Both the position numbers and the translations under genes were made by a program. Source: a virus (lineage: Duplodnaviria; Caudoviricetes). Taken from it: DNA of 64,000 nt. The stretch spans positions 1 to 64,000 of the IMG/VR virus record IMGVR_UViG_3300028048_000068, one strand, 5' to 3'. Position 1 is the first letter of the stretch. Every line of letters begins with the position of its first letter. The notes under the pieces are model-generated. The model ran no database searches. It worked only from the letters and a program-made list of their open reading frames with translations, and had not been told where the DNA came from. Of the stretch, positions 10,545 to 41,064 are shown piece after piece.

Positions 10545-10548
10545 ATAT

Positions 10549-10627: not shown

Positions 10628-10632
10628 GATAT

Positions 10633-10707: not shown

Positions 10708-10714
10708 TTTATAT

Positions 10715-10793: not shown

Positions 10794-10798
10794 TTTAT

Positions 10799-10876: not shown

Positions 10877-10879
10877 TAT

Positions 10880-10954
10880 GTCGCATTCGTATATCAACTA
10901 ATATATCAGCTTGCCATGCTGAAGAAACCGGGGTAGCACCGGTATGCGGCTCCA
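10880..10954 (+). tRNA. tRNA-Gly(GCC), non-canonical D/T loops
   Basis: TCAGC-TTGCCAT-GCTGA arm, U73, CCA; T-loop GGTAGCA. Confidence 0.85.
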
Positions 10955-11037
10955 TTATTAATTTACCAAGGGTTTAAAAAAATATACTTGCTCCAAAAAT
11001 TTCTCACTTAATAGTAGAAGGGAAATAGGAGGATAAA

Positions 11038-11793
11038 ATGATAGGTATTTATAAGTTTGTAAATAAAATAAATGGTAAAATTTATATAGGTCAATCTAAT
11101 GATATACAACGTAGAATAAAAGACCATTATTACAAAGCACACAATCCGACTGGAGGTAATTATCATTCACCTTTACACTTAGCCATTCGAAAATATGGGT
11201 GGGACAATTTTCAGATAGAAGTATTAGAAGAATGTAATATAGAAGAATTAGATGAGAAAGAGATATATTATATTCAATTATATAATTCTATTACGCCTAA
11301 TGGTTATAATATTATGGCCGGTGGACAGCAATTTAGAAAAGATACTTCAGATTCTAATAAAAAAAGATGTAGTCAATGTGGTAAAATTATAGATAGAAAA
11401 GCTCATACTGGTTTATGTCTTGATTGCTACAGACAATTTTTGAGAAAAGATATTCCAACAAAAGAAGAATTAAAACAACTATTAATAGATAATAATGGCA
11501 ATTTTACTAAAGTAGGTAATATGTTTAATGTTAGTTCTTCTTCAATAGTGAGATGGTGTAAAAGTTATAATTTACCATATTATAGTGAAGATTATAAAAC
11601 CAAAAAAGAAAAACAAGCATATAAACGCCCAGTAAATCAAATTGATAAAAACACCAATGAAATTATTGCCACCTATGAATCTTCTATGGATGCCGCGAGG
11701 GCATTGGGGAAGAAAAAAGGTAGTCATATAACTGAAGTATGTAAGGGAATACATAAGACAGCATATGGTTACAAGTGGCAATATGCTGAATGA
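11038..11793 (+). CDS. GIY-YIG homing endonuclease (Zn finger, HTH, NUMOD1)
   Basis: GIYKFVNKINGKIYIGQS; CSQC..CLDC; C-terminal TAYGYKWQY. Confidence 0.9.
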   Translation: MIGIYKFVNKINGKIYIGQSNDIQRRIKDHYYKAHNPTGGNYHSPLHLAIRKYGWDNFQIEVLEECNIEELDEKEIYYIQLYNSITPNGYNIMAGGQQFRKDTSDSNKKRCSQCGKIIDRKAHTGLCLDCYRQFLRKDIPTKEELKQLLIDNNGNFTKVGNMFNVSSSSIVRWCKSYNLPYYSEDYKTKKEKQAYKRPVNQIDKNTNEIIATYESSMDAARALGKKKGSHITEVCKGIHKTAYGYKWQYAE

Positions 11794-11874
11794 GTGCCAG
11801 TCGCCTAGAGGTCGATGGCGCCTGCCTTCCAAGCAGGTATATCATCGTGAGTTCGAATCTCACCTGGCACTCCA
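11794..11874 (+). tRNA. tRNA-Gly(TCC)
   Basis: CCTGC-CTTCCAA-GCAGG, U73, CCA. Confidence 0.93.
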
Positions 11875-11878
11875 ATAA

Positions 11879-11967
11879 GGAGGGTTGGCCGAGTGGTCGA
11901 AGGCGCTAGTCCTGAAAACTAGAAGGCGTAACAGCCTCGCGGGTTCAAATCCACGCACCCTCCTCCA
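11879..11967 (+). tRNA. tRNA-Ser(TGA)
   Basis: long variable arm; loop CCTGAAA (C33); CCA. Confidence 0.88.
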
Positions 11968-11968
11968 T

Positions 11969-12042
11969 ACTCCTATAATTCAATGGTAGAATAGGCGACT
12001 TTTAATCGTCTTATCCCAGTTCAACTCTGGGTGGGAGTACCA
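11969..12042 (+). tRNA. tRNA-Lys(TTT), second divergent copy
   Basis: GGCGA-CTTTTAA-TCGTC, CCA. Confidence 0.9.
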
Positions 12043-12045
12043 TAT

Positions 12046-12121
12046 ACCCCATTAGCTTAATGGATAGAGTACCAGCCTACGAAGCTGCGGGATAAGCGTT
12101 CGACTCGCTTATGGGGTACCA
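12046..12121 (+). tRNA. tRNA-Arg(ACG)
   Basis: loop CTACGAA, CCA. Confidence 0.92.
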
Positions 12122-12265
12122 CTTGGTAGTTTTATGGGAAGTTTGTCTACCAGTTGTTATCAAATCACCCTACGCCACGGTTAATGGTTCAAATTCTGCC
12201 GGCAAACAAACAATAGAAGTCTCGCAAGGTGAAAGCGTTCCAATAAGGTGTTCGGCGTATTTTAT

Positions 12266-12342
12266 AGGACACTAGTCCAATTGGCAGAGACAAACGGCTC
12301 AAACCCGTTGTGTTGTCGGTTCGAATCCGACGTGTCCTACCA
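12266..12342 (+). tRNA. tRNA-Leu(CAA), short variable loop
   Basis: AACGG-CTCAAAC-CCGTT, A73, CCA. Confidence 0.9.
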
Positions 12343-12346
12343 TTGT

Positions 12347-12423
12347 GCAGCCTTAGTTCATTCAGTTAGAACGCCGTTCTGATAAAGCGGAGGTGCGTGG
12401 AGCATAGCCACGAGGCTGTACCA
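12347..12423 (+). tRNA. tRNA-Ile(GAT)
   Basis: loop CTGATAA; T-loop AGCATAG; CCA. Confidence 0.9.
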
Positions 12424-12426
12424 TAT

Positions 12427-12502
12427 ACACGATTAGTTCAGTTAGGAGAACGCTAGTCTTACAAACTAGAGGTCACAGGGGCAGAGCCTGTATCGTGTAC
12501 CA
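12427..12502 (+). tRNA. tRNA-Val(TAC)
   Basis: loop CTTACAA; T-loop GGCAGAG; CCA. Confidence 0.9.
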
Positions 12503-12507
12503 TTTGT

Positions 12508-12584
12508 GGGGTCATAGCTCAGTTTGGGAGAGCGCCTGCCTTGCACGCAGGAGGTCGCGGGTTCGATGCCTGTTGGCTCCACCA
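12508..12584 (+). tRNA. tRNA-Ala(TGC)
   Basis: G3:U70, TGC anticodon, CCA. Confidence 0.95.
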
Positions 12585-12587
12585 TAT

Positions 12588-12661
12588 AGCCGTTTCGTCT
12601 AATAGTAGGACAACTGACTCTGACTCAGTAAATATTCGTGCAATTCGGATAACGGCCGCCA
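12588..12661 (+). tRNA. tRNA-Gln(CTG)
   Basis: ACTGA-CTCTGAC-TCAGT, G73, CCA. Confidence 0.88.
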
Positions 12662-12662
12662 T

Positions 12663-12737
12663 GTCCTGTTAGTTCAACGGATAGAACAATGGTCTTCTAA
12701 ACCATTAATCACAGTTCGATTCTGCGGCGGGATACCA
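12663..12737 (+). tRNA. tRNA-Arg(TCT)
   Basis: loop CTTCTAA, CCA. Confidence 0.92.
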
Positions 12738-12742
12738 ATTAT

Positions 12743-12827
12743 CGCAGCGTATACCATTAAAGAGGTGGGGAGGACTGTAAATCCTTCGTCTTAGACTCGC
12801 CTGGAGCGTTACCAGGAGCTGCGACCA
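12743..12827 (+). tRNA. tRNA-Tyr(GTA), C1:G72
   Basis: loop CTGTAAA, long variable arm, A73, CCA; T-loop AGCGTTA. Confidence 0.88.
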
Positions 12828-12830
12828 TAT

Positions 12831-12906
12831 GCCTAGATAGCTCAGCAGGTAGAGCGCTCGGCTGAAGACCGAGTGGCCGTTAGTTCAATTCTAACTCTAG
12901 GCACCA
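12831..12906 (+). tRNA. tRNA-Phe(GAA)
   Basis: cloverleaf, CCA. Confidence 0.95.
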
Positions 12907-12909
12907 TAT

Positions 12910-12985
12910 GGACCAATAGCACAATGGTTGGTGCAACCGGCTCATAACCGGTAGGTTCAAGGTTCAAATCCTTGTTGGTCCACCA
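12910..12985 (+). tRNA. tRNA(CAT), probably Ile2 (lysidine type)
   Basis: GGACC acceptor and CGG-CTCATAA-CCG arm resemble Firmicute tRNA-Ile2. Confidence 0.85.
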
Positions 12986-12989
12986 TTGC

Positions 12990-13065
12990 GCGGCTATGGT
13001 GTAACTGGAAGCATTCGGGCCTCCAAAGCCTTGAGACCTATGTTCAATTCGTAGTGGCCGCGCCA
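12990..13065 (+). tRNA. tRNA-Trp(CCA)
   Basis: loop CTCCAAA, G73, CCA. Confidence 0.9.
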
Positions 13066-13068
13066 TAT

Positions 13069-13145
13069 GGACGTGTACCCAAGTGGCTCAAGGGGACAGG
13101 TTGCAACCCTGTTATTCACTGGTTCGAATCCAGTCGCGTTCTCCA
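13069..13145 (+). tRNA. tRNA-Cys(GCA)
   Basis: loop TTGCAAC, U73, CCA. Confidence 0.93.
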
Positions 13146-13220
13146 GTAGAAGTTAGTTTAGTGGTAAAACCCCAGATTGTGGCTCTGGTGTCACGAGTTC
13201 GATTCTCGTACTTCTCCCCA
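13146..13220 (+). tRNA. tRNA-His(GTG)
   Basis: G-1/C73, loop TTGTGGC, CCA; abuts tRNA-Cys with no spacer. Confidence 0.92.
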
Positions 13221-13285
13221 GATAATTTGAAATTTTCCGAAAATTCTTATATAATTATAATATAAGATAAAGAAAGGAAATTATT

Positions 13286-13561
13286 ATGAAGAATGAACTT
13301 GTTTTTAAAAACCATGAAAATGGTTATAAGGTAGCAAAGATATTACTTGATGAGGGTAATGTGGTTATGTTGTCTTATGAAGAGCAATTTCTTATCGTTA
13401 ATTGGGAATATGGTGAAGATGGATACGCAGATAGAAATTGTGTCATCTTTATGCAGAAAGAGGAATATGAGGAACTTGAAGATAGACTATGTGATGCTAT
13501 TTTCACAGACCTTAGAAATGATATTAAGAGAGGCCGAATTAAAGACCTCTCTGATATATAA
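13286..13561 (+). CDS. hypothetical protein
   Basis: ORF track; own promoter and RBS. Confidence 0.8.
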   Translation: MKNELVFKNHENGYKVAKILLDEGNVVMLSYEEQFLIVNWEYGEDGYADRNCVIFMQKEEYEELEDRLCDAIFTDLRNDIKRGRIKDLSDI

Positions 13562-13826
13562 ATTCCTTCAATAGACCGCGATTGAGCGGGGTGAGGAAGG
13601 TTGACGCTTTGCTGGTGATGAGGCGATTTATCAACGAAGAGAAATCGGTTAACCATCGTAGTAGCAGGGACTCTTAATGCAAGTGGGTCTGCCCACCCTG
13701 TGAGGTTCGCAACCTTTGATAGCGCGGCCGCTGAGTACGTATAGGCGGCTGGATTGAATACGTCCATGGGCGATTGACCGACGAGGTCACAAATGAGCCA
13801 GGCGGAGGCTTTGTATCCGCCTTTTA
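13562..13826 (+). ncRNA. candidate structured ncRNA
   Basis: GC-rich ORF-free run of hairpins ending in GGCGGA-N-TCCGCC-TTTT. Confidence 0.35.
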
Positions 13827-13829
13827 TAT

Positions 13830-13906
13830 GGCCCATTAGTCCAACTGGTAGAGACAACCGATTTAAGCTCGGTACAGTTTCCGTTCGAATCGGAAATGGG
13901 CTACCA
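13830..13906 (+). tRNA. tRNA-Leu(TAA), short variable loop
   Basis: ACCGA-TTTAAGC-TCGGT, A73, CCA. Confidence 0.9.
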
Positions 13907-14158
13907 TAACTTATTTACAAAAACGGTTGAACCTACCTCTCCAAGAGGTAGGCGGCCGCAGAGTAAGTAAGACATAGAATTTGAAAAATTTATAAATTCT
14001 TGCTATAATATATATGTAAGGTAAGAAGAGAGAATAAAAGAGTGGTAAATACGTCATCTCTCATAGCGAATCACCACCACCTTACATTTCTATAGCTCAA
14101 CTACCATGTTGTAGAAGGAGTGTCTTTAGACGTCCTGCCTGTGTAGGGCGTTTTCTGT

Positions 14159-14306
14159 CAACGAATATAGTGTAATAGGATAGCACGCCGCCCTCATCGG
14201 TTAGTTCTTCCGAGAAGCAGGTACGCGACTGTAGTTATGGCTTGCATGCGAGTCATATAACTAACCATCGAGCGCGGAAGATGGGGTTCGAATCCCCACT
14301 CGTTGA
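14159..14306 (+). ncRNA. tRNA-like RNA with ~70-nt insertion in the anticodon arm
   Basis: acceptor CAACGA/TCGTTG, D-arm GTGT/GCAC, T-arm TGGGG-TTCGAAT-CCCCA; no encoded CCA. Confidence 0.6.
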
Positions 14307-14450
14307 AACAGACAGAGGTTTGTACGCTTTAACTGTCTTTAACTTAAATAAAAACCTGCACCCGCCACAGGGGCCGTATTTCAACCTACCAAGGTAGCGC
14401 CTGGCATGATGTATTGAAAGAAATGTGGTACAGAACATACTGTATAAAAG

Positions 14451-14926
14451 AAGCGTGCTTTGCGGATTCGTTGGCGTTAAATGAATTCGTCGTTCTGCGG
14501 CGGCACCGCAGACCGATCTATGGCGGTTCCATAGGGAGTACTGCTACTCAGTTCTTAGCGGCGGAGGCGCGACCGTTTGTTAAACCATCGCATGGGAGAA
14601 GGCGTGATAGCTAAGAAACTCCATCTGCGCGGATGTCCTACCGCGCCGTGAGCCGAACGAGGTGAAATTAAATTGGTACACCGCACAACACGCGGTATAT
14701 AAATTTGAGCGTCTACTACAGTTTAAGGTGTCTGGGCTGTAGACCACGTTAGAAAAAACTAATACACGACACATTGGCTTTCGGATATTCTCCAGTGGTT
14801 AGTCAGACCACAGAAAGCTTTGACTTCAAGAAAATCAGAAAACGGTGAGAGTCCGTGAGGAGTCCGTTGGCGTAGACGCAGCGTATCCTAGGTAGACAGT
14901 CTACTGCTTGGAAGTGGCACGCTTAA
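14451..14926 (+). ncRNA. candidate large structured ncRNA (~475 nt)
   Basis: closed by AAGCGTGC/GCACGCTT; many internal hairpins; no credible ORF; sits just before tRNA-fMet. Confidence 0.5.
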
Positions 14927-14941
14927 ACTTTCACGCGTTAT

Positions 14942-15017
<76 letters not shown>

Positions 15018-15109
15018 TTTTCGAACTTTTAACTTTTGGTTTCAGAAAAATATATTCTTCTTATTAAAAGTTCACTTTATAATAGAAGAAATAATAAGGA
15101 GATTATGGT

Positions 15110-15646
15110 ATGAGTAAAGCAAAAGATGTAGTAAATTTTAGAATAAGGGTTAAAACGGCTTTAGTAGAGTCTTTTGGCAACAAATGTCAGTTATGTGGTA
15201 AAGAATATCCTCAATCGGTATTTGAATTTCATCACTTAAATCCAGCAGAGAAAAGTTTTGCATTGGGTTGTGGTTCAACTACTCGCGCGAAAGCGGCATA
15301 TGCTGATGAAGCAAAAAAGTGTGTTATGCTTTGTGCGAATTGTCATAGAATGGTAGAACATGAAGATGTAGATGGCTCTAATTTAAAATGTGATTTTAAT
15401 GAAGAGATTTATTACCAAACATTAGATAAATTAACTCAAAAGCATACCCAAGAACTTAAAGAACAACAAAAAGAAATTCGTTTTAAGCCAGATAAGGAGC
15501 AATTATTGCAAGATTTAACTGAATTGAATGGTAATTTTACTGCAGTGGGTCGTAAATATGGATATTCGGCTAATGCTGTAGTAAAATGGTGTAAGAAATT
15601 TGAAATGCCTTATCATTCTTCGGATTATAAGAATAAGCTTAGGTAG
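15110..15646 (+). CDS. HNH homing endonuclease with C-terminal HTH
   Basis: CQLCG...FHHLNP...LCANCH. Confidence 0.85.
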   Translation: MSKAKDVVNFRIRVKTALVESFGNKCQLCGKEYPQSVFEFHHLNPAEKSFALGCGSTTRAKAAYADEAKKCVMLCANCHRMVEHEDVDGSNLKCDFNEEIYYQTLDKLTQKHTQELKEQQKEIRFKPDKEQLLQDLTELNGNFTAVGRKYGYSANAVVKWCKKFEMPYHSSDYKNKLR

Positions 15647-15712
15647 CCTAGTGGATGAGGCAGCGCACTGTTAATGCGCCTTAGGTGTGTTCGATTCACA
15701 CCCTAAGCGCCA
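15637..15712 (+). tRNA. tRNA-Asn(GTT); overlaps the HNH stop codon
   Basis: GCGCA-CTGTTAA-TGCGC, G73, CCA. Confidence 0.92.
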
Positions 15713-15923
15713 TAGGTCTAATCATACCTTTAAACGATAGAGCGTTAACACGGATTTTTCGGTTCAACTACCACCGGCGCGCTTCTGCGTGATATGTGGC
15801 TTTAGGGGAGAACGCTATATAAGGAAGCCAAGTAAACCGATTTAAGTTAAGTAACCGTTGAAAAGTAAGGAACCGCTTTAATATACGAAACAGATTTTGT
15901 CTGCTCTGCTTAACTTGATTTAT

Positions 15924-16002
15924 TGGCGCGTGGAGAAGGGGCTTAACTCTCGACGCTTTGACCGTCGCATTTTCGCAGGTTCGAATCCTGCCGCGCCAGC
16001 CA
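15924..16002 (+). tRNA. tRNA-Gln(TTG)
   Basis: CGACG-CTTTGAC-CGTCG, U1:A72, GCCA. Confidence 0.93.
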
Positions 16003-16074
16003 TTTTCGAACTTAAAAGGCACGACAGGAATGCGTGTTGATTATTTAATATATTATAAGAGGAGTCGTTTAATT

Positions 16075-16716
16075 ATGGCATACATTTATAAAATTATTAA
16101 TGATATTAATGGGAAGCTATATGTGGGAAAAACTGTTAATAGTTTACAAGAACGATGGAAAGAGCATTTAAGTGAAAGCGAAAGAGAAAGAGCTAAAAAT
16201 CGTCTATTATATCGTGCTATGCGTAAATATGGTATAGAACATTTTCATATTGAGCTAATTGAAGAATGTTCCGATACAATAGTTAATGATAGAGAAGTAT
16301 ATTGGATAGAATATTATGGCACTTTTAAAAATGGATACAATGCTACTATAGGTGGCGATGGCAAACATTATATAGATTATGATATGGTAGAATATAATTA
16401 TAACATATATCAAAATATGACAGAAGTTGCTCATCAAATGAATATTTCTACTGATGCCGTAGCCTATATTTTAAAACAAAGACATATACCTATTAAAACC
16501 ACTCAAGATATTAGCCGTGAAAAGTTTGGTAAACCTGTGTCTTGTATAGATAAAACAACCAAAGAAGTTATAAAAACTTTTCCTTCGATTGCAGAAGCTT
16601 CCAAGTGGTTAATTAGTAATAATTTAACGGGTTGTAAATTTACCACTATTAGAACTCATATTTCAGAGGTAATGCGTGGTAAACGAAAATCTGCTGCGGG
16701 CTTCATTTGGAAGTAA
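16075..16716 (+). CDS. GIY-YIG homing endonuclease with NUMOD1
   Basis: YIYKIINDINGKLYVGKT; GYNATIGGDG; KSAAGFIWK; AGGAG RBS before 16075. Confidence 0.9.
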   Translation: MAYIYKIINDINGKLYVGKTVNSLQERWKEHLSESERERAKNRLLYRAMRKYGIEHFHIELIEECSDTIVNDREVYWIEYYGTFKNGYNATIGGDGKHYIDYDMVEYNYNIYQNMTEVAHQMNISTDAVAYILKQRHIPIKTTQDISREKFGKPVSCIDKTTKEVIKTFPSIAEASKWLISNNLTGCKFTTIRTHISEVMRGKRKSAAGFIWK

Positions 16717-16725
16717 CCGCTTTAA

Positions 16726-16800
16726 GCCGAATTAGTTTAATTAGTAAAACGGGTGACTTGTAATCATCGGTCCTCCGAGCATAACGGGGATTCGGCTCCA
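16726..16800 (+). tRNA. tRNA-Thr(TGT)
   Basis: loop CTTGTAA; T-loop AGCATAA; CCA. Confidence 0.88.
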
Positions 16801-18856: not shown

Positions 18857-18949
18857 CATTTCTATAGACCGCATCCATGCGGTCTTTTAAATTTGAAAAA
18901 ATTAAAATTTTCTGATATAATTATATATATAAGAAGGGAGAAAATTATT

Positions 18950-20140
18950 ATGAATCTCAAAATATTTACAAACAACATCGAGCCACAAGCTCTTTCTCAA
19001 ATATATACACTTACGTCTCAGCCTGCTTTTGCCGACTGCAAAATCCGCATAATGCCGGACGTCCACGCTGGCGCAGGCTGTGTCATCGGATTCACTGCAG
19101 ACCTTGGTGAGAAAGTTATCCCTAACATTGTCGGAGTCGACATCGGCTGCGGCATGTTAACGGTTGAGCTTGGACAGATTGACATCGACTATGCAAAGTT
19201 AGACTCAATCATTCATATGTATATACCAAGCGGGCGCAATGTACATGCAGCTGCGACATATCCTGTTAAGACAATGAAGCAGTTATATTGTTACGATGCA
19301 TTGAAAAACAAAGACAGAATTAGATGTTCTCTCGGTACGCTCGGTGGTGGTAATCACTTTATCGAAATTGACGAGGATACAAAGGGCAACAAATATCTTG
19401 TTATCCATTCTGGTTCTCGTAACCTCGGTAAGCAAGTAGCGGATTACTATCAGAAGGTTGCGATTGACAATCTCTATGGTACTAATGACTTAGCTCAGGC
19501 GCAGAATGAGTTAATCGCTTCATTAAAAGCACAAGGTAGAGAAAGAGAAATATCGGGAGCAATAGAGGAACTTCATAAGTCCTATAAGGCAAAGACTATA
19601 GATATTCCAAAAGAATTATGCTATCTTGAGGGCGAGGATAGACTTAACTATCTCCACGATATGAAGATATGTCAAGAGTTTGCTGTGGCTAACCGCGCAA
19701 TGATGGCGAATATAATCTATCGTCATATGCACTGGGCGCCAGTATCATCATTTGAAACAATACACAACTATATCGAGCATGAGACAAATATGGTACGTAA
19801 AGGTGCTATATCTGCGAAATATGGTGAGCATGTATTAATTCCAATCAACATGCGCGATGGCTGCATTGTAGGTATCGGTAAAGGTAACGAAGATTGGAAC
19901 TGTTCTGCTCCGCATGGCGCCGGCCGCCTTATGAGTAGAGCAAAGGCGAAAGCAAATATATCACTTGATGATTTTGAAGCTTCGATGGAAGGTATTTATA
20001 CTACTTCGGTTAATCAGTCTACGCTTGATGAGTCTCCAATGGCTTATAAGTCGATGGATGAGATACTTGAAAATATAGGAGATACTGTTGAGGTTGAACG
20101 TATTATCAAGCCGGTATATAATTTCAAAGCGTCGGAGTAG
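18950..20140 (+). CDS. rtcB: RtcB-family RNA ligase (tRNA repair/splicing)
   Basis: PDVHAG, GVDIGCGM, GTLGGGNHFIE, HSGSR, HNY, RKGA, HGAGR motifs; own promoter and terminator. Confidence 0.95.
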   Translation: MNLKIFTNNIEPQALSQIYTLTSQPAFADCKIRIMPDVHAGAGCVIGFTADLGEKVIPNIVGVDIGCGMLTVELGQIDIDYAKLDSIIHMYIPSGRNVHAAATYPVKTMKQLYCYDALKNKDRIRCSLGTLGGGNHFIEIDEDTKGNKYLVIHSGSRNLGKQVADYYQKVAIDNLYGTNDLAQAQNELIASLKAQGREREISGAIEELHKSYKAKTIDIPKELCYLEGEDRLNYLHDMKICQEFAVANRAMMANIIYRHMHWAPVSSFETIHNYIEHETNMVRKGAISAKYGEHVLIPINMRDGCIVGIGKGNEDWNCSAPHGAGRLMSRAKAKANISLDDFEASMEGIYTTSVNQSTLDESPMAYKSMDEILENIGDTVEVERIIKPVYNFKASE

Positions 20141-30938: not shown

Positions 30939-31292
30939 CTATGCTCTCTTGTAGCCGTTTACCTTGCCCTTTGCGCCCTTAATCTTCTCTGTTACGACTC
31001 TTCCGTCCTCAACAGCTCTCTTAACGAGAACAGTTGCCTTCTGCGGAGTTCCGATTTCCTCGAAGTGGTCGCAGATGTCAGATGCAGTTACGAACTCATC
31101 GCCAAGGAACTCAACGATGGCGTCTACGAGCTTCGACTCCAGCTCCAGCTTCTCTGCTCTCTTCTCGCCAGCCTTTTCCTTGCGCTTTGCGTTGGATGCG
31201 TCGAGACTCTCGATAAGCTCAGCCGCGAGTGTCTGCATTTCCTCTGTGATTGTGCCGTTAACGATTGCTACATACATTTCTCTCTTTGTCAT
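30939..31292 (-). CDS. putative winged-helix DNA-binding protein, paralog A1
   Basis: similar to 35096-35425 and 40717-41064; TASDIC..KATVLVK..wing GKVNGY. Confidence 0.75.
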   Translation of the reverse strand: MTKREMYVAIVNGTITEEMQTLAAELIESLDASNAKRKEKAGEKRAEKLELESKLVDAIVEFLGDEFVTASDICDHFEEIGTPQKATVLVKRAVEDGRVVTEKIKGAKGKVNGYKRA

Positions 31293-31569: not shown

Positions 31570-31990
31570 ATCGAAGTCGCAGCTTGTACAATGCGCGCAG
31601 AAAATTTGACAAAATTTTTCAAATTTCGTGTCGTGTGCAGCTCCCTTAAAATTTGATTTTTAAAGTCAAATTTCCAGGCGGCCCGGTCCGTTGGAAAGTC
31701 GCAGCTCCTTTTCGTGCGCCATCCGCAGCTCCCTGCCGCGGCCCAGCTGCAGCTCCTTCGCAGCTCCCTACGGCCGAAATTTGACAGCGCACGGCCGCAG
31801 TCGACGTACGACCACGACGAACATTTGTTCGGAACGTATGTTCGGAAATACGTATGAGTTAGACACGTTTAATTGTTAATAATTTATTAACAAACTACCC
31901 CACGCTGTGGAAATTTGACTTTGTTAAAAATTTGACAATCGGCCCGGGCAAATCCCGGACCGGCCCGGGCGCGGTTGACGATAACATTAT
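31570..31990. repeat. regulatory repeat block: GCAGCTCC x5, AAATTTGAC/GTCAAATTT repeats, two LexA-type boxes (31818-31844), Rex-type box (31921-31938)
   Basis: directly visible. Confidence 0.75.
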
Positions 31991-32044
31991 TATTGCCACT
32001 TATAATCCAAAAAAAAGTGGGGATATACCCCACTCAACCGATAA

Positions 32045-32398
32045 CTACTTATCGTGGACTTCCGCACGCTTGCGTCTGATTTCCTCATCACGCTTACGCT
32101 TGCGTTCCTTTTCTTCGGCTTTCTCTTTTGCCTTGCGTTCCTTTTCCGCAAGGTTGTGGACGTAGTCCTCTGCGATGGCGTAACCATCGTAAGGCTCAAG
32201 TCCCTTGTTTGCACCCGTAGGCACTTTGAAGTTGATAACGATGAAGTCCTCGTTACCTTCGCAACCAACACAAGGGATTGCGATTTCATTGGACTTTACT
32301 CGTAAAACTTCTTCGCCACTTTCGTAGAGAAACTGCGAAACCTTTTCGAGGAAGTTAGTTCTGATTAACTCACGTTCTACTTTTCTTGATACTGCCAT
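32045..32398 (-). CDS. hypothetical protein, paralog B1 (charged C-terminal coil)
   Basis: near-identical core to 37163-37522 (VLRVKSNEIAIP.VGCEGNEDF..KVPTGANKG). Confidence 0.85.
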   Translation of the reverse strand: MAVSRKVERELIRTNFLEKVSQFLYESGEEVLRVKSNEIAIPCVGCEGNEDFIVINFKVPTGANKGLEPYDGYAIAEDYVHNLAEKERKAKEKAEEKERKRKRDEEIRRKRAEVHDK

Positions 32399-32735
32399 AA
32401 GACACCTACCTTTCTTTTATCTCTTTATCTTACAATAGAATTATATCACTCGTTGATATACTTGTCAAGCGATTTTTTAAAATCTCTGCGAAATTTTTTA
32501 TGCTGTTCTTTTTTATCACTGCGGATAGAGTTAAGGCGTGCGTGCTCACAATAATAGTGGCGTGCAAATTTATCTTCAAAAGTTTCTTTTTTGTATGCGT
32601 TGCGTCTCATTGGCTTACCTCCTTACAATATAATTATACTGATATTTTGAGATAATTCAAGTTCTTTAAAAAGTACAAGATTTAGGAAAGTTTGTCTTGA
32701 CTAACTCGCGCGGCGACCCGGGCCAGAAAAGTTTG

Positions 32736-32818
32736 TTGTTAATTTATTAACAAGCGACCCGGGCACGCACGAACATATGTTCGTATGGACCGGCCGCGAA
32801 TGTGCGAACATATGTTCG
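32736..32818. promoter_or_regulatory. Rex-box / CCCGGG / LexA-box cassette (best example of ~13)
   Basis: TTGTTAATTTATTAACAA (32736-32753); CGAACATATGTTCG at 32770 and 32805. Confidence 0.75.
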
Positions 32819-32841
32819 TTTTCGTGTAAATAAAAAAAGGA

Positions 32842-33030
32842 CTATTCGTCCTCTTCTTCATACCATATCTTTTTTATTGTTAAGTGGTCAAGTAAATCTG
32901 TTGCATCATGTATGATATAGTCTGCTACGCACTCGTTAATCATTTCCATATCATCATTTTCAAAATCTTCCATACTTTCTGCCCAACAAGTTAAATCGAA
33001 ATCAATTGTAAGTTCAATATGTCTAACCAT
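32842..33030 (-). CDS. small highly acidic protein
   Basis: ORF track; own promoter and RBS. Confidence 0.75.
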   Translation of the reverse strand: MVRHIELTIDFDLTCWAESMEDFENDDMEMINECVADYIIHDATDLLDHLTIKKIWYEEEDE

Positions 33031-33160
33031 TTATTTTCTCCTTTCTTTATCTAATATAATTATACTTATTTACTTTTGTTTGTCAATACCTTTTTTAAAA
33101 GTTATTTTTTTCACAAACTTTGGACCGGCCCGCGGTTGACGATAACAAAGACGTGGTAAA

Positions 33161-33802
33161 TTACCACATCTTTGTTTCGAAGTTAAATCCGTCTAACTTT
33201 TCACACTCAAGCAAAATTTTGTATTCAATTTCGCTATCTGAAAGTGCCGTATGTTCTTCGACAAATTCATTGTCAAAGAAATAACGAGCGACTATTTCTG
33301 TGGTATATCTGTTGGCGTTGTTCTGTGTCAGATAACCATTAGACTTGCAAAACTCTCTATATGTTTTATCTTTCTTCAATACGTTGCGAGAGAGTGCGAG
33401 AATATCGTGAAATTCTGTGCCATAAGGGAAGAAATATCTATACTTTGAGGAAGTGATATATCTCTGTGTAGTTGCGAGTGAACAATAATCAAAACGGCAA
33501 TTATACGCATAAACTTTTGTGATGTTGTTTTCTTTCATTATATGGCGAAGTGTCCACATTATGTTTCTGAAAGAAGTTAGAGTTCTCGAACCATTTTTTA
33601 TTTCTTTCCAATATATTGGGATTTTCTCTGCAAAATATGCCGAAGCCATAAGTTCTTTATCGCAGAAAACATCTGCATTTACGAACGAATGTTTGGAATA
33701 GATTGTTCCATTGTAGTCTGCGACTATAAAACCGCAATCATATACAAGTGCGTCATCGAGTGAATTTGTTGTTTCCGTATCTATTATGAGTATCTTTTCC
33801 AT
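33161..33802 (-). CDS. DEDDh 3'-5' exonuclease
   Basis: IIDTETT, YNCRFD, HTALSD. Confidence 0.85.
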   Translation of the reverse strand: MEKILIIDTETTNSLDDALVYDCGFIVADYNGTIYSKHSFVNADVFCDKELMASAYFAEKIPIYWKEIKNGSRTLTSFRNIMWTLRHIMKENNITKVYAYNCRFDYCSLATTQRYITSSKYRYFFPYGTEFHDILALSRNVLKKDKTYREFCKSNGYLTQNNANRYTTEIVARYFFDNEFVEEHTALSDSEIEYKILLECEKLDGFNFETKMW

Positions 33803-33950
33803 TTTGTTTTTTCCTTTCTCTTGATTACAATATGATTATAAAGGATTTGTTTTAGGAAGTCAACCCTTTTTTATGTTTTTATATCGAAACAATTGTGTTA
33901 ATTTTTTAACAAGGCGGCCCGGGCAAAACCGAACGAGTGTTCGGCTTAGT

Positions 33951-34136
33951 TTAATCAAACTCAACATAATTATCTTCGTCTAATTGATATTCTTCAACCC
34001 ATACTTGTGAATTATTATAACCAATACCACCATTGCGATTAATTTCATCTCTTTGAAATTCTGCCATTACTTTTGAACGAGAACCCCCAAGAATAACAAC
34101 GTTATCAAGTACGCCCATAACTATATAAAGTGTCAT
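33951..34136 (-). CDS. hypothetical protein
   Basis: AAGGAG RBS before MTLYIV; own promoter. Confidence 0.7.
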   Translation of the reverse strand: MTLYIVMGVLDNVVILGGSRSKVMAEFQRDEINRNGGIGYNNSQVWVEEYQLDEDNYVEFD

Positions 34137-34272
34137 TTTTATTTTCTCCTTTCCTTTGATATATACATTATAAACTAACATATTTATAAAGTCAAGAACT
34201 TTTTAAAAAGTTAATTTTTTAACAATCGGCGACCCGGGCGAACTTGACGCATAAAATATATGCGTCAATTCG

Positions 34273-34458
34273 TTAGTCGATTTCCTTTATAAATTCGTCT
34301 CTTTCCCATTTGAAAAAACTATTGATTAAAAATCTACAATCACAACAATCACATACTGCAATAGATTTTTTGATTTCTTCTGTTTCGGTATATGCATCTT
34401 CATCAATAATATCCTCGATGGAATAATCTGTACTGTTACATTTAGGACATTTAACCAT
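34273..34458 (-). CDS. Zn-ribbon hypothetical protein
   Basis: CPKC...CDCC; RBS. Confidence 0.7.
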   Translation of the reverse strand: MVKCPKCNSTDYSIEDIIDEDAYTETEEIKKSIAVCDCCDCRFLINSFFKWERDEFIKEID

Positions 34459-34621
34459 TTTTTATTATCTCCTTTCTATAAAATATGTTCATAAGTCATA
34501 TCATATTCATTACTATTTTGGTTGAGTTCTTTTAAAAGTGTTTGGGCGTCATTTTCATTTATAAATATCCAAAATATCCCTGTATCTTCTGTATGGTAAA
34601 CTATATAAACACCATTCATTT

Positions 34622-34762
34622 TTAATTCTCCTTTCTAATATAAACTTTAACAATACGATAATGTTTTGAATTTAAATTACTATATTTCATATAAGTATTA
34701 TAAAAAGAATATGAGCGATATATAATTTTATGAGTGCGTCTATGTTCGATTATAAATTCCAT
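34622..34762 (-). CDS. small basic hypothetical protein
   Basis: AAGGAG RBS before MEFIIEH. Confidence 0.55.
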   Translation of the reverse strand: MEFIIEHRRTHKIIYRSYSFYNTYMKYSNLNSKHYRIVKVYIRKEN

Positions 34763-35095
34763 TGTATTACTCCTTTCCATTACTCCTTTCTTTTGATACC
34801 TAATTATAACAATAATTTTAAATTCTGTCAACACTTTTTTATGTACTAAAATCCGTACAATCGCGCCCGGTCGTGCCCGGGCCCGCGCGAACATACGTTC
34901 GATTTATGAGTACGAAAAAACGGACTTGCGTCCGTTTCTTCTGAAAGGAGGTGAAAACAATGACTCATAAAAGTGGTGGAGTAGACGAAGATTCGAACTT
35001 CGTTCGCTATGCCCTTGGGAGGGATATTCATAGTGGACACCTTGCCCTACCCCATAAGGTTGTGGTTTTAAGGGATAACCACAAACCCTTTTGTA

Positions 35096-35425
35096 TTAAC
35101 CGAGAAAGTAACCTTTCTGCGTTCCTTTTCCCTTAACCTTTACATCGACAACCTTTACATCCTCGACTTTCTTGGCGAGTGCAGAAGCCTTGTTTACGGA
35201 AATTCCGCAGAGTTCCGCAATCTTGCTTGCGAGCATTGGCTCATCTGTAAGCACTCTCGAAATTGCTTCGATTATTGGTGCGTTAGCAATCTGTGTCTTG
35301 CTTGGACGCTCTGCCCTCTTGGCGTTGCGCACGTCGAGTTTCTCGATTGCTTCTGTGGCGAAAGTAACCATATCCTCTGTGATAGTTCCGTTGATAACTG
35401 CGTTGTAGAATTCTCTCTGTGTCAT
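35096..35425 (-). CDS. putative winged-helix DNA-binding protein, paralog A2
   Basis: MTQREFYNAVINGTITE; LASKIAELCGISVNKASALAK HTH. Confidence 0.8.
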   Translation of the reverse strand: MTQREFYNAVINGTITEDMVTFATEAIEKLDVRNAKRAERPSKTQIANAPIIEAISRVLTDEPMLASKIAELCGISVNKASALAKKVEDVKVVDVKVKGKGTQKGYFLG

Positions 35426-35798
35426 AGTACATTTTCCTTTCTTTTTTAACTCTTTAACTTGTGTCTTTATTATAACTGATTTGTTTGGGTTTGTCAAGAC
35501 TTTTTTAGAACTTTTTTAATTTTTTATTCTGTTCTTTTCTATTCCTCTTGACAATTATATTGTAGCACACTTTTTAGTTTGTGTCAATATCTTTTTTATG
35601 TTTTTTTATGTTTTTCTCGCTTATACTCGCGAGGTCAAGGGAAAGGTGTTTCTGTGTCCACGCGTTGTTTCTGTTTCTTCCTTTCCCTCTGACAATTATA
35701 GTATAGCAAAAATTTAATAATCTGTCAACACTTTTTTCATTAGTTATTTTTTTAACAATCGCGCCCGGGCCAACGAGTGCGAACACTCGTTCGCACCC

Positions 35799-36140
35799 TT
35801 ATGCAATTGCATTAGCAACAACCTTGAGAAGTACATTTTTATACCACTCTGCATCGTGTACAATTTTGTATACATTTGCCTTATATGGTATCTGTGCCGT
35901 TACATATTTATTATGATGCCATATTTCTTTTTCAAAAGTTCTGTCAACAGTACCAACAATTTCTGCGATACCTCTGCGCACAAGCATCATCATAAGCTGT
36001 GAATTATGGGAAGCAACATACCATTTTTCGCCAAGTTCAGAAGCCGTAAATTCTTTATCAAGGAAACCATTCTTTTCAATTGCGTTGAGTGCCATTCTAA
36101 CATATCTCATATCATATTTCAGTTCTCTAATTGTTCTCAT
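35799..36140 (-). CDS. hypothetical protein (possible winged helix)
   Basis: GAGG RBS before MRTIREL; FTASELG. Confidence 0.75.
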   Translation of the reverse strand: MRTIRELKYDMRYVRMALNAIEKNGFLDKEFTASELGEKWYVASHNSQLMMMLVRRGIAEIVGTVDRTFEKEIWHHNKYVTAQIPYKANVYKIVHDAEWYKNVLLKVVANAIA

Positions 36141-36296
36141 TGTGTACCTCACTTTCATTTTTTTATTTACTATCTCTTGACAATGTAAGTATAGCAAATA
36201 TATATGTATGTGTCAATACTTTTTTAAAAATAATTTAAAAGTTATTTTTTTAACAATTGACCGGCCGCGCGTATAAATATACAAAAAAGAGATTGT

Positions 36297-36734
36297 TTAT
36301 GCAATCTCTTTCAGTATCTCGATAATGTTATCCACATCGAACGCTGTACCTTTCCATTCTTTTCTGTTTGGTTCTTCATCATCGAAAAGTATGCCGTTTA
36401 TATCGTCAACCATCGTTGATTTTGGTGTTCCGTACTTTCCAATTTTAATTTCATCGAAGTGTACGCTTTTCAGATGATTGTTAAGCCATTCGATTTTAGC
36501 GTTGGTTACTTTTATATCGTAACTTTCGCTTGCGTTCTTTGCTAACCAAGAAACGATACCGATTTTATGTCCGTTTCTCTGTGCCTTGTTAAGAAGTCTT
36601 GCGAGTGTTGCAAGTCTTACAAGTGGTTCTGCGTCTGTGTATGGGCTTGCATCTTCATTTCTGAGTTTTGGGAGCCAATTTTCTACTGCGTAGAGATTAG
36701 CGATTGTTCCGTCCATATCGAAGTAAATTGTCAT
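36297..36734 (-). CDS. HAD-superfamily 5'(3')-deoxyribonucleotidase-like phosphatase
   Basis: FDMDGTIA, IVSW, K, LFDD. Confidence 0.85.
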   Translation of the reverse strand: MTIYFDMDGTIANLYAVENWLPKLRNEDASPYTDAEPLVRLATLARLLNKAQRNGHKIGIVSWLAKNASESYDIKVTNAKIEWLNNHLKSVHFDEIKIGKYGTPKSTMVDDINGILFDDEEPNRKEWKGTAFDVDNIIEILKEIA

Positions 36735-36801
36735 TTTGTTTTTCCTCTCTTTCTTTCTTTGTATCTATATTATAGACTACTTTTGAGAGTTTGTCAATAG
36801 T

Positions 36802-36978
36802 TTATTTTGTTTTTTTATGTTTTTTAGCAATATCTCCAAGCATAAATATTATATCCATTGTTTTGACAATATCATATTTCTTATGTATTTCGCCAAAACA
36901 TTTAGGGCATACAATAAAATCTACATATCCAAAAGACTCATCCCAACTAGTTTCTCTTCTACAAATAGCACACTTCAT
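36802..36978 (-). CDS. Zn-ribbon hypothetical protein
   Basis: CAIC...CPKC. Confidence 0.7.
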   Translation of the reverse strand: MKCAICRRETSWDESFGYVDFIVCPKCFGEIHKKYDIVKTMDIIFMLGDIAKKHKKTK

Positions 36979-37162
36979 TTTGTTTTCTCCTTTCTTATTA
37001 CAATACAATTATAAACTATGAATAATCGGAAGTCAACCCCTTTTTATGTTTTTCTTTGTATTTATGTTGTTAATTTTTTCACAAGTGCGCCCGGGCCATG
37101 TCAAACATATGTTCGTTTTAATTTTGGGAATAAAAAAGACGAACTTTCGTTCGTCTTTTCGT

Positions 37163-37522
37163 CTATTCTCCTTTTTCGGAAATTACTTTCTTTTTTTCTC
37201 TAATCTCTTTGTCTTTTCGGATTTTTTCCGCTTTCTTTTTTTCGGCTTCAATTTTTTTCTGTTCTTTTTCGGCAACTTTCATTTCATAATCTTGTGCCAT
37301 TTCATAACCGTCATATGGTTCTGTGCCTTTGTTTGCACCCGTTGGAACTTTTACGGTTACAACGATGAAATCTTCGTTGCCCTCGCACCCTACAACGGGA
37401 ATTGCAATCTCATTAGATTTTACTCTCAAAACTTCTTCATCTTTTTCCAAGAAATTATCAATAATTTTCTGAAGATAATCGTTTCTTAAAATTTCTCTTT
37501 CTACTTTTCGGGATATTGCCAT
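37163..37522 (-). CDS. hypothetical protein, paralog B2
   Basis: similar to 32045-32398. Confidence 0.85.
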   Translation of the reverse strand: MAISRKVEREILRNDYLQKIIDNFLEKDEEVLRVKSNEIAIPVVGCEGNEDFIVVTVKVPTGANKGTEPYDGYEMAQDYEMKVAEKEQKKIEAEKKKAEKIRKDKEIREKKKVISEKGE

Positions 37523-37598
37523 TGTCAAATTCTCCTTTCTTTTACTTTCTATAATTATTATAGCAAAATTTTAAAAATTTGTCAAATTATTTTTTGTT

Positions 37599-37742
37599 CT
37601 ATTTTAGGAACAAAGGGATATAAAACATAATAGGAATTGAAAGAAGAAGTAAAAATCCAAAAATTCCTCTTTCGGTTTTTTCCTCAAATACTGCACAAGT
37701 AATAGCGAATATGAACCAAAGTATAAGTATAATCCAAAGCAT
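37599..37742 (-). CDS. small membrane protein
   Basis: two transmembrane segments; RBS and promoter. Confidence 0.65.
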   Translation of the reverse strand: MLWIILILWFIFAITCAVFEEKTERGIFGFLLLLSIPIMFYIPLFLK

Positions 37743-38701
37743 TGTTTTTATCTCCTTTCTTTTGATATACACATTATACAATAGATATAGAGGAAAGTCA
37801 ACCACCTAAACGAACATTAAGAACGAACGTATGTTCGTCTTTGCGCGCCCGGGCGACTCGGCGCGAACGTATGTTCGCACCTACATCCATCTATCCATAT
37901 TGCGTTTAGTTACCTTTTCTCTTTTCTTTCTTTTATCTGTATAAACACCTGTTCTAAAAGGTATATCCTGTATTGGCTTAGTCTGCCTTACTATGTCAAT
38001 ACCCTTTATTGTTCCTACTGTTATATTCTTCTTCTTTGACATCTCTATGCCCTCCCAAGATACTCAAGTCTGCGTGGCACTGTGACAATGTACCATCTCA
38101 TCACATCGGATTTACATTTACGCATCCATCTATTGCGGTCGTTCTCCTTAATGATACCGAGAACTATCATTCTGTTTACCATTTCCATCTTTGTCATTTG
38201 TCTTTACCTCTCTTTCTTTATCTGTCTATATTATAGTCGATGCAGAAAACAATTGCAATACCTTTTTATGTTTTTCTTTGTATTTTTATACACTCACGGC
38301 CCGGGCCGACCGAACATATGTTTAATTAGAAAGAATAAAAATGAGGGCTTGCGCCCTCTGCGGTACCTCTACAGCGATGTATGCCCGTTTTGCCTATTCC
38401 AACCGCTACGGGATTTGGTTCACACTTATATACCGCAACGCTGAGACCCTTGCGGTGGTGGGACTTTATCAGCAAGACTTATCCGTTCTGTGTAGAACTC
38501 CCTCTTCGGTTCGGCTTGCTTCCCTCACCTTGTATCTATATTATAGTATGAATTTGATTATTTGTCAACACTTTATTTTGTTTTTCTTTGTATTTATTTC
38601 GTTAATAAATTATTAACGAAGTCGCGCCCGGTCAATTTTAACCCGGACCGGCGCGAACGTACGTTTGATGAAGAAATAAAAAAATAAGCCTTTCGGCTTA
38701 T

Positions 38702-38890
38702 TTACTGAAGTTCAAATTCTTCGATTTCATAAAGAGGAATTCCTTCTTCATCTTCGCAGAACCAAGGATGCTCATATTCCTGATTTTCTGCTATCCACTT
38801 TTCTGCATCTTCTCTTGAGGCATATACTGCCTGTGCTTCTCTGCAACCATATTCATCATCTACCATCATGTTTACTACGTATACCTTCAT
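38702..38890 (-). CDS. small acidic hypothetical protein
   Basis: AAGGAG RBS before MKVYVV. Confidence 0.75.
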   Translation of the reverse strand: MKVYVVNMMVDDEYGCREAQAVYASREDAEKWIAENQEYEHPWFCEDEEGIPLYEIEEFELQ

Positions 38891-39014
38891 TGTTCTATCT
38901 CCTTTCAATCTCTTAGCTTGTCTATATTATACTCTTTATAGCTTGCATTGTCAAGCTCTATCTTGTACTTCGTTTGATATAATCAGTTCGACTCGAAGGT
39001 CGAGGGTCGAGGGT

Positions 39015-39485
39015 CTAGTGCAGACCCTCGATTACCCTTATCAGCTGAGTCTCGGTGGTGAATGTGGCTCTTTCAAACTTGAGCTGATATGTGATACCGT
39101 TCACTATCATATCCGGACCTTCCCACCACTTCAGTGTGTCCTTTTCCCAAGTCTGTCCGAAGTATTCAGCCATTACATATTCAAAATCGTGGCCTTTATT
39201 GCTACCATATACAGGTGTCAGCATTTCGTGAACTTCTTCGAAGTGTTCAATGGTGCAGACCTTGAAAGCACCAGCCTTAATCATAGCCTTTTTCTCGTCG
39301 GCTGTAGGTCTAAAGCGCATTGATACAGCGCCGCCCTTGCTCTTAGCGGCTCTATCGAGCACACAGCCCAGGCCGTTGAACACGCTCTCGTATGCCCATA
39401 CGAAACCATCACGCGCGAACCCGTCAAAATGACGCTCGCATGCTTCGAAAGTCTTGTAATTGTCAACCATAGTTCTAAGTTCCAT
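39015..39485 (-). CDS. hypothetical protein with PD-(D/E/Q)xK nuclease-like motif
   Basis: GHDFE...GPD...YQLK; AAGGAGG RBS; TTGACA/TATAAT promoter 39512-39540. Confidence 0.7.
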   Translation of the reverse strand: MELRTMVDNYKTFEACERHFDGFARDGFVWAYESVFNGLGCVLDRAAKSKGGAVSMRFRPTADEKKAMIKAGAFKVCTIEHFEEVHEMLTPVYGSNKGHDFEYVMAEYFGQTWEKDTLKWWEGPDMIVNGITYQLKFERATFTTETQLIRVIEGLH

Positions 39486-39638
39486 TTTAGTACCTCCTTG
39501 CTATGGTTAGATTATAAGCCCAACGGCTATGTTTTGTCAATTGAAAAAATCAATAATAATAGCAGAGTATTATTAATAAAATCAATAACACAAAATCAGT
39601 AAAATCTATTGACAAACACATAAAATTGTGATTGGACT

Positions 39639-39900
39639 TTGTGATATTTTTAACAAGGGATCTCAAAATATTTGAGGCGACCAAAAGAATATTTGTTCTT
39701 TTTTGTTCCCTAAAAATCTTTTTGTTAACCTAAAGAATATTTGTTCGGATTGTTGTTTATTTATTAACAATCCGAATGTATGTTCGCTTGTGAAACTTTT
39801 AACAAGTGGATCCCATATGAACATATGAACATATGAACATATAAACATATGTTCGACCATACATACATTAACATATGTTCATATGTTCATATGTTCACTG
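39639..39900. repeat. dense cluster of Rex-type boxes and GAACATAT/ATATGTTC (LexA half-site) tandem repeats
   Basis: TTGTGATATTTTTAACAA, TTGTTTATTTATTAACAA, TTGTGAAACTTTTAACAA; GAACATAT x3 and ATATGTTC x3. Confidence 0.8.
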
Positions 39901-40716: not shown

Positions 40717-41064
40717 CTACACGTAGTAGGCCTTTCTTTTACCTTTATTTTTAACCTTCACATCGCAGCTTTTAATTTTCCCCTCTCGTATAAGGTTCGT
40801 ACAAATAGCAGTGAGCCTTTGACGCGTCAACGTTGAGCCAATTTTCTCCGCCAACTCATCAATTTGAATTGGCTCCTCCGTTAGCGCCTCACAAATTAAT
40901 TCCTCGTAACGCTTATTTTCGACGTAATTTGCACTCTCCTTACTCACTTGATTCGCTCGCGCGCTACGTTCGTCCAGCTTCGCCAATTCAGCCTTGCAGT
41001 CTTCAATTAGCTCTTCCGTAATATTCCCAGCTATAACCGCTTCAAGTCTTTGTCTCCTAGTCAC
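40717..41064 (-). CDS. putative winged-helix DNA-binding protein, paralog A3
   Basis: GTG start with GGAGG RBS; IDELAEKIG..TRQRLTAIC..KGKRKAY. Confidence 0.8.
   Translation of the reverse strand: MTRRQRLEAVIAGNITEELIEDCKAELAKLDERSARANQVSKESANYVENKRYEELICEALTEEPIQIDELAEKIGSTLTRQRLTAICTNLIREGKIKSCDVKVKNKGKRKAYYV

Follow-up and report, generated by a model that had tools for sequence, protein, structure and literature searches.

Reiterated terminator-to-promoter junctions with LexA- and Rex-type consensus boxes in the early block of a rumen phage, and their possible role as docking sites for host repressors

The DNA analyzed here (the window) comprises the initial 64 kb of a phage record in IMG/VR (IMGVR_UViG_3300028048_000068) that is complete at 136,627 bp, and our subject is the set of short palindromic boxes occupying the spacers of a leftward block of about 19 small genes at 31.8-39.9 kb. 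On its minus strand, the block has around 20 sigma-A-type promoters within 8 kb, nine of which are perfect copies of TTGACA-N17-TATAAT (12/12), together with about 10 intrinsic terminators. Its proteins are mostly orphans, the recognizable ones being a DEDD-type exonuclease, a 5'-nucleotidase-like protein and a winged-helix protein. The phage is present in cattle-gut (rumen) metagenomes, and two rumen metatranscriptome runs hold the block. The nearest cultured relatives are Enterococcus phages of 134-142 kb, with an exonuclease identity of 34%, and a megablast search of cultured phages with the block gave no match. The 136.6-kb genome contains no Phage_integrase or Resolvase domain, and no lysogeny module was found in it.

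Two of the boxes were defined as CGAAC-N4-GTTCG (L, 14 bp) and TTGTTAA-N4-TTAACAA (R, 18 bp); the third module is a GC island, usually containing GCCCGGGC. When the 136.6 kb were scanned, allowing up to one mismatch in L and up to two in R, 14 of 15 L, 11 of 12 R and all 11 CCCGGG sites fell inside the block. Against 100 dinucleotide-preserving shuffles of the window, L was observed 14 times versus 0.76 expected (the highest shuffle reached 4), R 12 times versus 1.37 and GCCCGGGC 8 times versus 0.16. Nine perfect L copies exist genome-wide, eight in junction spacers and one in a terminator stem (37140); the latter and the match at 33682, inside the exonuclease gene, are probably not operators. 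A 21-bp variant of R (TTGTTAATAA-N-TTATTAACAA) occurs in two copies. The patterns of CodY, NrdR, CIRCE, cre and Fur/PerR showed no clustering anywhere in the genome. As a side observation, CCCGGG is absent from the other 128 kb, where a zero-order estimate expects about five; either the site may be potent enough to be avoided elsewhere, or the junctions may override restriction avoidance.

Read along the transcribed strand, a junction runs from the terminator through L, the GC island, R and an A-rich stretch to the -35 and -10 hexamers, with an incomplete set of modules in some cases (Table 1). Relatives were collected by an exonuclease search, which returned 73 related loci from viral contigs, 15 of them close relatives (76-92% identity). 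Within the window and these 15, L followed by the GC island, with or without R behind it, was counted 70 times versus 7 for the reversed order. An earlier note on this DNA, made from the sequence alone, had described about 13 intergenic cassettes holding the boxes, usually in this order. Every box position it gave was present on re-scan, the density of L, R and GC sites lies far above both the shuffles and the rest of the genome, and the usual order is upheld; the cassettes themselves resolve into 12 junctions that run from a terminator to a promoter, and a single divergent control region. The note had further set the boxes at some 30-80 bp from the -35, on its upstream side and off the promoters; their position off the promoters is retained, and the distances are corrected to 12-31 nt for the end of R and 22-110 nt for L.

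Table 1. Positions of junction modules and of other features in the window; figures in parentheses after L and R boxes are mismatches to the definitions, 0 meaning a perfect copy.
Feature	Position	Strand	Terminator or hairpin	L boxes	GC module	R boxes	-35	Remarks
Control region	39600..39900	divergent		39773-39786 (1)		39639-39656 (2); 39753-39770 (1); 39788-39805 (1)		between leftward early block and rightward genes; 39806-39900, long inverted repeat, each arm with three to four GAACATAT units (8 bp) in tandem
C1	38540..38703	-	38682-38703	38654-38667 (1)	GC-rich repeat 38623-38650	21-bp variant TCGTTAATAA-A-TTATTAACGA 38599-38619	38563-38568	-10 at 38540-38545
C2	38230..38358	-	38343-38358	L-like 38311-38324 (2)	38297-38312	none	38253-38258	
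C3	37773..37877	-	no separate terminator	37864-37877 (0); 37824-37837 (0)	37843-37855	none	37796-37801	
C4	37008..37159	-	37134-37159	37102-37115 (1)	GCCCGGGC 37089-37096	37067-37084 (1)	37031-37036	terminator stem is CGAAC-N4-GTTCG at 37140-37153
C5	36188..36312	-	36285-36312	none	36261-36271	weak 36239-36256 (3)	36211-36216	
C6	35700..35793	-		35780-35793 (0)	35760-35775	35741-35758 (2)	35723-35728	two more promoters (-35 starts 35587, 35497) precede the winged-helix gene
C7	34803..34936	-	stem 34920-34935	34888-34901 (0)	34862-34889	none	34826-34831	
C8	34167..34268	-	hairpin 34243-34268	none	34227-34240	34208-34225 (2)	34190-34195	
C9	33835..33944	-	L itself is the hairpin, then a T run	33930-33943 (0)	GCCCGGGC 33917-33924	33895-33912 (1)	33858-33863	5' of the exonuclease gene
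C10	33059..33167	-	hairpin 33153-33167		33122-33135	weak, degenerate R-like 33099-33116 (4)	33081-33086	
C11	32633..32852	-	32838-32852	32805-32818 (0); 32770-32783 (0)	32787-32798; 32754-32771; 32707-32724	32736-32753 (0)	32655-32660	fullest junction
C12	31818..32035	-	32015-32035	31831-31844 (1) abutting 31818-31831 (0)	double island 31940-31974	31921-31938 (1); perfect 21-bp variant 31873-31893		atypical order GC, R, R, L, L
Region 3' of C12	31400-31800						31542; 31411	both -35 hexamers TTGAAA
Winged-helix protein	35096..35425	-						109 aa; weak HTH_20 match; AlphaFold pLDDT (predicted local distance difference test) 89.7
Winged-helix paralogues	30939-31292; 40717-41064	-; -						
Non-coding tail with tRNA-like element	34937-35095	-						159 nt, between winged-helix gene and terminator
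Candidate small RNA	38340-38540	-	strong, 38343-38358				38568	perfect promoter; ~190 nt
Paralogous pair	32045-32398; 37163-37522	-; -						117 and 119 aa
tRNA gene cluster	9426-16800	+						25 genes
RtcB-type RNA ligase	18893-20140							adjoins tRNA cluster
ATP-dependent DNA ligase	2428-3567							

The spacing of the modules is constrained as well. From the terminator stem to the start of L the distance is 17-21 nt (mode 19) in 33 of 54 contexts with non-homologous terminators and linkers, and the first box after a terminator, be it L, R or one of the two further palindromes of relatives described below (HisR-type and GTTAGT-type), starts about 15-25 nt past the stem. R ends 12, 22, 31 or 42 nt short of the -35, and the distances between these values are unoccupied. 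This corresponds to a period of 9.5-10 bp (Rayleigh p ~1e-6 to 1e-7, 51 sequence clusters), and the same spacings recur in distant lineages with otherwise unrelated junction sequences. The distance between L and the -35 has a flat distribution from 22 to 138 nt and no phasing. Considering the strong promoters of the window and the 15 close relatives, boxes are found at 87 of the 90 that have a terminator up to 170 nt upstream, versus 82 of the 225 without a detectable terminator (Fisher p ~7e-26), which leaves 143 promoters lacking terminator and box alike. The boxes mark terminator junctions, not promoters as such.

All 15 close relatives carry the same three modules, and in the complete ones the boxes are again clustered within the early block. 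When the 16 phages were pooled, the 226 L and 173 R copies showed conserved arms, random flanks and variable spacers: arm positions of L are 85-100% conserved next to unbiased flanks, with ATAT (84 copies) and ATAC (47) as the preferred spacers, ATAT being favoured in the LexA consensus too, and more than 90% of the R copies retain the G and C of the arms, with spacers that consist of A/T only. In the alignment of the orthologous junction upstream of the exonuclease across the 16 phages, the conserved columns are those of the GC island, the R box and the promoter hexamers, and L, where present, keeps its arms, with a spacer that differs between phages. Among distant relatives, no other module is retained as widely as the GC palindrome. 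A GACACATA...TATGTGTC palindrome standing in place of L in four relatives was considered and set aside, being a single-copy hairpin and not a repeated operator.

The modules are also exchanged between lineages. In relative L010, a junction may contain as many as three R boxes and CCCGGG is missing, and the junctions of L020 combine L and GC with a third palindrome, cacTTTA-N6-TAAAgtg, which takes the slot between terminator and GC island and reaches 19 copies per 16-kb locus. Its spacing does not fit a CIRCE/HrcA-like element, and it matches instead the consensus published for HisR in Firmicutes, which was validated by in vitro work on the Ruminococcus gnavus protein (PMC9413887). Such HisR-type boxes were found in L020, L028 and about 20 other related loci, and none in the genome of the window's phage. 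A fourth and widespread palindrome, GTTAGT-N4-ACTAAC, with conserved arms and variable spacers, occurs in L016, L056, L074, L076 and others at up to 10 copies per locus; the window has a single degenerate copy near 32690.

Regarding the proteins that might read these boxes, the earlier note had matched them to the operators of host Rex and LexA, and this part of it holds, as both palindromes are sequence-identical to published consensuses. L is identical to the Firmicute LexA consensus, given for B. subtilis as CGAACATATGTTCG (PMC8270828), and R to that of Clostridial Rex, given for Clostridiaceae as TTGTTAANNNNTTAACAA (PMC9600882), the Rex box of Bacilli being TTGTGAA-N4-TTCACAA (PMC6154617). 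Enterococcus phage H1, whose host is E. faecium, has five boxes of the Bacilli type genome-wide, all in two non-coding regions of its early block, and zero of the Clostridial type. The Bacilli version is also found on the cultured Enterococcus phages EF1 and VRE9, and the rumen/gut relatives have the Clostridial form; the variant thus follows the host lineage. The contigs of distant relatives were binned mostly into metagenome-assembled genomes (MAGs) of Lachnospiraceae, Eubacteriales, Clostridia and Egerieisoma. One Lachnospiraceae MAG that holds such a contig has four L-type boxes upstream of its lexA. Two perfect or near-perfect R sites of a Lachnospiraceae MAG lie inside a long open reading frame (ORF). 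For the gut phage Phass-1 (code-15) there is no host on record. A profile search of the phage genome (E up to 1) returned no LexA DNA-binding, Rex N-terminal or S24 peptidase domain. On these grounds, of which the change of R variant with the host lineage weighs most, host LexA and Rex are the probable binders of L and R.

The control region has features of its own. Its GAACATAT inverted repeat, which surrounds two L-like boxes, could be an origin, a cruciform or a dock for several dimers; such tandem repeats were not found in the fetched loci of the relatives. In the control region of phage H1 (L087:8830-9110), comparable GAAYAT repeats are accompanied by three Rex-type boxes. Elsewhere in H1, a gene-free stretch of 800 bp (L087:17760-18560) has three Rex-type boxes and about 13 iteron-like AAAATAACA copies in both orientations. 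The miRNA-like Rfam matches on the hairpin at 39.8 kb were judged spurious, and there was no other Rfam match.

The reading that we prefer, and hold tentatively, is that the boxes act in cis, insulating and gating the early units through the putative docking of host repressors. The spacers would be cassettes of one kind, each joining a terminator to the next promoter and repeated throughout a hyperplastic early-gene block, and the untranscribed DNA of each cassette would offer docking sites for host repressors (LexA box, GC palindrome, Rex box). LexA bound 17-21 nt past the stem would meet RNA polymerase with its active site still on the U-tract and would therefore be a roadblock, by which, as we propose, termination is reinforced and the early units are insulated. 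Rex, bound ahead of the -35 on a single face of the helix, would adjust the next sigma-A promoter to NADH/NAD+, and the repeated cassettes might, as a by-product, also supply homology by which genes are shuffled, in line with the homology blocks, described below, that end at junctions. An action in cis is favoured by the restriction of the boxes to the early block, by the phasing of R and by the fixed order; binding by LexA and Rex, the roadblock and the redox tuning are what we infer from the sequence.

Several points weigh against this reading. LexA and Rex normally repress where the operator overlaps the promoter, and NADH relieves the binding of Rex. Here, only 11 of 301 L boxes touch the promoter core or the first 25 nt of the transcript, so L does not overlap or abut core promoters in the manner of LexA operators, and R, by its spacing from the -35, does not overlap them in the manner of Rex operators. 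Moreover, 143 of 315 strong early promoters (45%) have no box, and any gating would therefore be partial. Both the box-free promoters and the positions off the promoter cores weaken the case. The centres of R, near -56.5, -66.5 and -76.5, could equally fit a protein placed to spare the polymerase, and the spacings could come from compact packing and not from a roadblock. The GC palindrome has no explanation in it, the host assignment comes from weak MAG binning of distant relatives, and the phage group has a conserved winged-helix family of its own, discussed below, to which the core shared by L and ArsR/SmtB sites is relevant. The earlier note had offered either a logic gate coupling the early genes to redox state and DNA damage, or a DNA sponge for the two repressors. 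Its operator identities are supported; the few boxes at promoter cores, the box-free promoters and the tracking of terminator junctions speak against a general promoter gate.

The tracking of untranscribed junctions, and the position of boxes outside promoter cores, are points in favour of the sponge, that is, of a decoy. Boxes in the junctions, the only early-block DNA that polymerase does not cross, would hold host repressors stably, and once replicated genomes outnumber the host operators, the SOS and redox/fermentation regulons (and that of histidine in relatives) would be derepressed with no phage protein, a possibility that we consider doubtful, though with several facts on its side. LexA, Rex and HisR sites, i.e., all identified box types, are repressor sites; one R box of phage H1 lies about 700 nt from the next promoter; and R sites with up to one mismatch number 10 in a 2.2-Mb Lachnospiraceae MAG versus 6 in the 137-kb phage and 24 in 12.6 kb of L010. 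A protein-free takeover of this sort, with the array titrating LexA and Rex (HisR and others in relatives) after replication, repair, redox/fermentation and biosynthetic regulons being derepressed to the advantage of the phage, and lineages swapping box types to suit the host, we hold to be doubtful to the same degree. A single genome copy adds few sites compared with typical repressor numbers. As titration would be effective only after replication, confinement to the early block would be unnecessary, and a sponge requires neither the phasing of R to the -35 nor the fixed order. Thus, the confinement, the phasing and the tight spacing between terminator and L argue against the earlier note's sponge in its pure form.

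Binders encoded by the phage are another matter: the early winged-helix proteins may bind L, GC and/or R and, once the first minutes have passed, silence or insulate early transcription, much as with the phiC31 and L5 operators treated below. Any resemblance to host operators would then be coincidental or serve competition with host proteins. Three such paralogues lie in or adjoin the block, one of them with three tandem promoters, and the family is present at 2-4 copies across the phage group, phage H1 included. The core of the ArsR/SmtB 12-2-12 site, TGAACA-NN-TGTTCA (PMC8790569), contains GAAC-N4-GTTC as L does, so the binding of a winged-helix protein to L has to be taken seriously. In relative G003, all seven L boxes are CGAACATTTGTTCG on either strand, six of the seven in the same orientation. 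However, the family is equally common in many relatives devoid of L, R and GC boxes, G004, a complete genome with R and GC boxes, yielded no member of it, and no subclade of it tracks L outside the close relatives, as far as the truncated loci of the relatives show. The fold search returned generic PadR, ArsR/SmtB and MarR-type matches only (E of at least 0.02), with no likeness to the N-domains of LexA or Rex. Since three box types each equal a published host consensus, and one of them switches with the host, independent phage specificities are hard to credit, and we regard phage regulators as unlikely. Quite improbable, in our view, is that the junctions are only recombination or structural cassettes, with the palindromes as passengers, read by no specific protein, of a repeat that provides homology for shuffling small genes or a DNA shape (curvature, GC clamp). 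It is true that gene content differs sharply, many window genes being absent from relatives with an 85-92% identical exonuclease, that A-tract-rich linkers are common to the cassettes, that one window junction matches several junctions of a relative, and that homology blocks end at junctions: upstream ends (n=133) fall at promoters 27 times versus about 12 expected and at L boxes 16 times versus about 5, an excess that gene-wise modularity alone would partly explain. Against it, conserved arms beside variable spacers and random flanks are a signature of selection for a dimeric binder, as is the keeping of the L arms with a varying spacer in the aligned orthologous junction; the spacing constraints persist across non-homologous contexts, and an integrase or resolvase for site-specific exchange is missing from the genome.

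Other features of the window were noted along the way. Its 25 tRNA genes are clustered next to an RtcB-type RNA ligase, and an ATP-dependent DNA ligase is encoded as well (Table 1). Two paralogous proteins of unknown family, about 60-70% identical, are encoded at the downstream end of the block and inside it, and their family is conserved, frequently as a pair, in most phages of the group. The non-coding tail behind the winged-helix gene contains a tRNA-like element with a G:U pair at 3:70 of the acceptor stem, a T-arm (GTTCGAATC) and an encoded CCA, part of which is conserved in relatives; neither ARAGORN nor Rfam gave a call on it. A candidate small RNA follows the perfect promoter with its -35 at 38568, as the roughly 190 nt behind it contain no ORF with a ribosome-binding site, and the stretch is 86% identical to relative L015. 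Finally, the region 3' of junction C12 is GC-rich, with about six GGAGCTGCG repeats, several AAATTTGAC or GTCAAATTT palindromes and two promoters, a layout that is similar in L010.

On any of these readings, the boxes would be a new link between a virulent phage and host physiology, be it as a redox and DNA-damage sensor, a roadblock insulator made of borrowed proteins, or a repressor decoy, and the box types could mark the host lineage of uncultured phages. The closest parallel in layout is found in the promoter-early stem-loops (PeSLs) of T4-type phages (PMC2839356, PMC4122927), which likewise join a terminator and an early promoter among the small ORFs of a hyperplastic region. In both systems, close relatives differ by insertions, deletions and replacements bounded by the cassettes, which here would point to recombination. 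A PeSL is a stem-loop plus a promoter, whereas the junctions described here insert three more palindromic modules, in fixed order and at fixed spacing, between terminator and promoter. The two systems are further separated by phage group and host phylum, this phage not being a T4-like myovirus, and the likeness is one of analogy, not of membership. An integron-like array works with a site-specific recombinase, for which no Phage_integrase or Resolvase domain is available here.

Multi-copy operators are known from temperate phages: the conserved inverted repeats of phiC31 and the stoperators of mycobacteriophage L5 are many near-identical short intergenic operators among early genes, read by a phage repressor in the lysogen, and some of them act on the elongating polymerase. 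The L5 stoperators are asymmetric and oriented, whereas the boxes here are palindromic and have a host consensus, with no cognate phage protein identified. To our knowledge, Spo0A on phi29 is the one case in which sites for a host regulator have been worked out on a virulent phage, and a search of the open full-text literature gave no paper that reports Rex operators on a phage. Like the phage described here, phi29 and Nf (PMC2731898) are virulent, infect Firmicutes and lack the regulator gene, yet have consensus sites to which a global regulator of the host corresponds, and the coupling of phage development to host state by these sites is a further likeness, by analogy. The phi29 boxes overlap early promoters and origins, with demonstrated repression, in contrast to the sites for at least two different predicted repressors that lie here at a dozen junctions, upstream of or behind transcription units. 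GIL01 (PMC4551915, PMC6182141) similarly has no CI-type repressor of its own and uses Firmicute LexA boxes at early promoters; it is temperate, and its boxes lie in P1 and need the phage protein gp7, whereas here the boxes lie behind terminators in a genome without a recognized lysogeny module. In none of PeSLs, phi29 and GIL01 are operators of more than one host repressor brought together under a fixed grammar of junctions. What sets this clade of large rumen/gut phages apart is that consensus operators of two or three host repressors stand at the terminator-promoter junctions of the early region, under a strict grammar in which the operators appear as interchangeable plug-ins.

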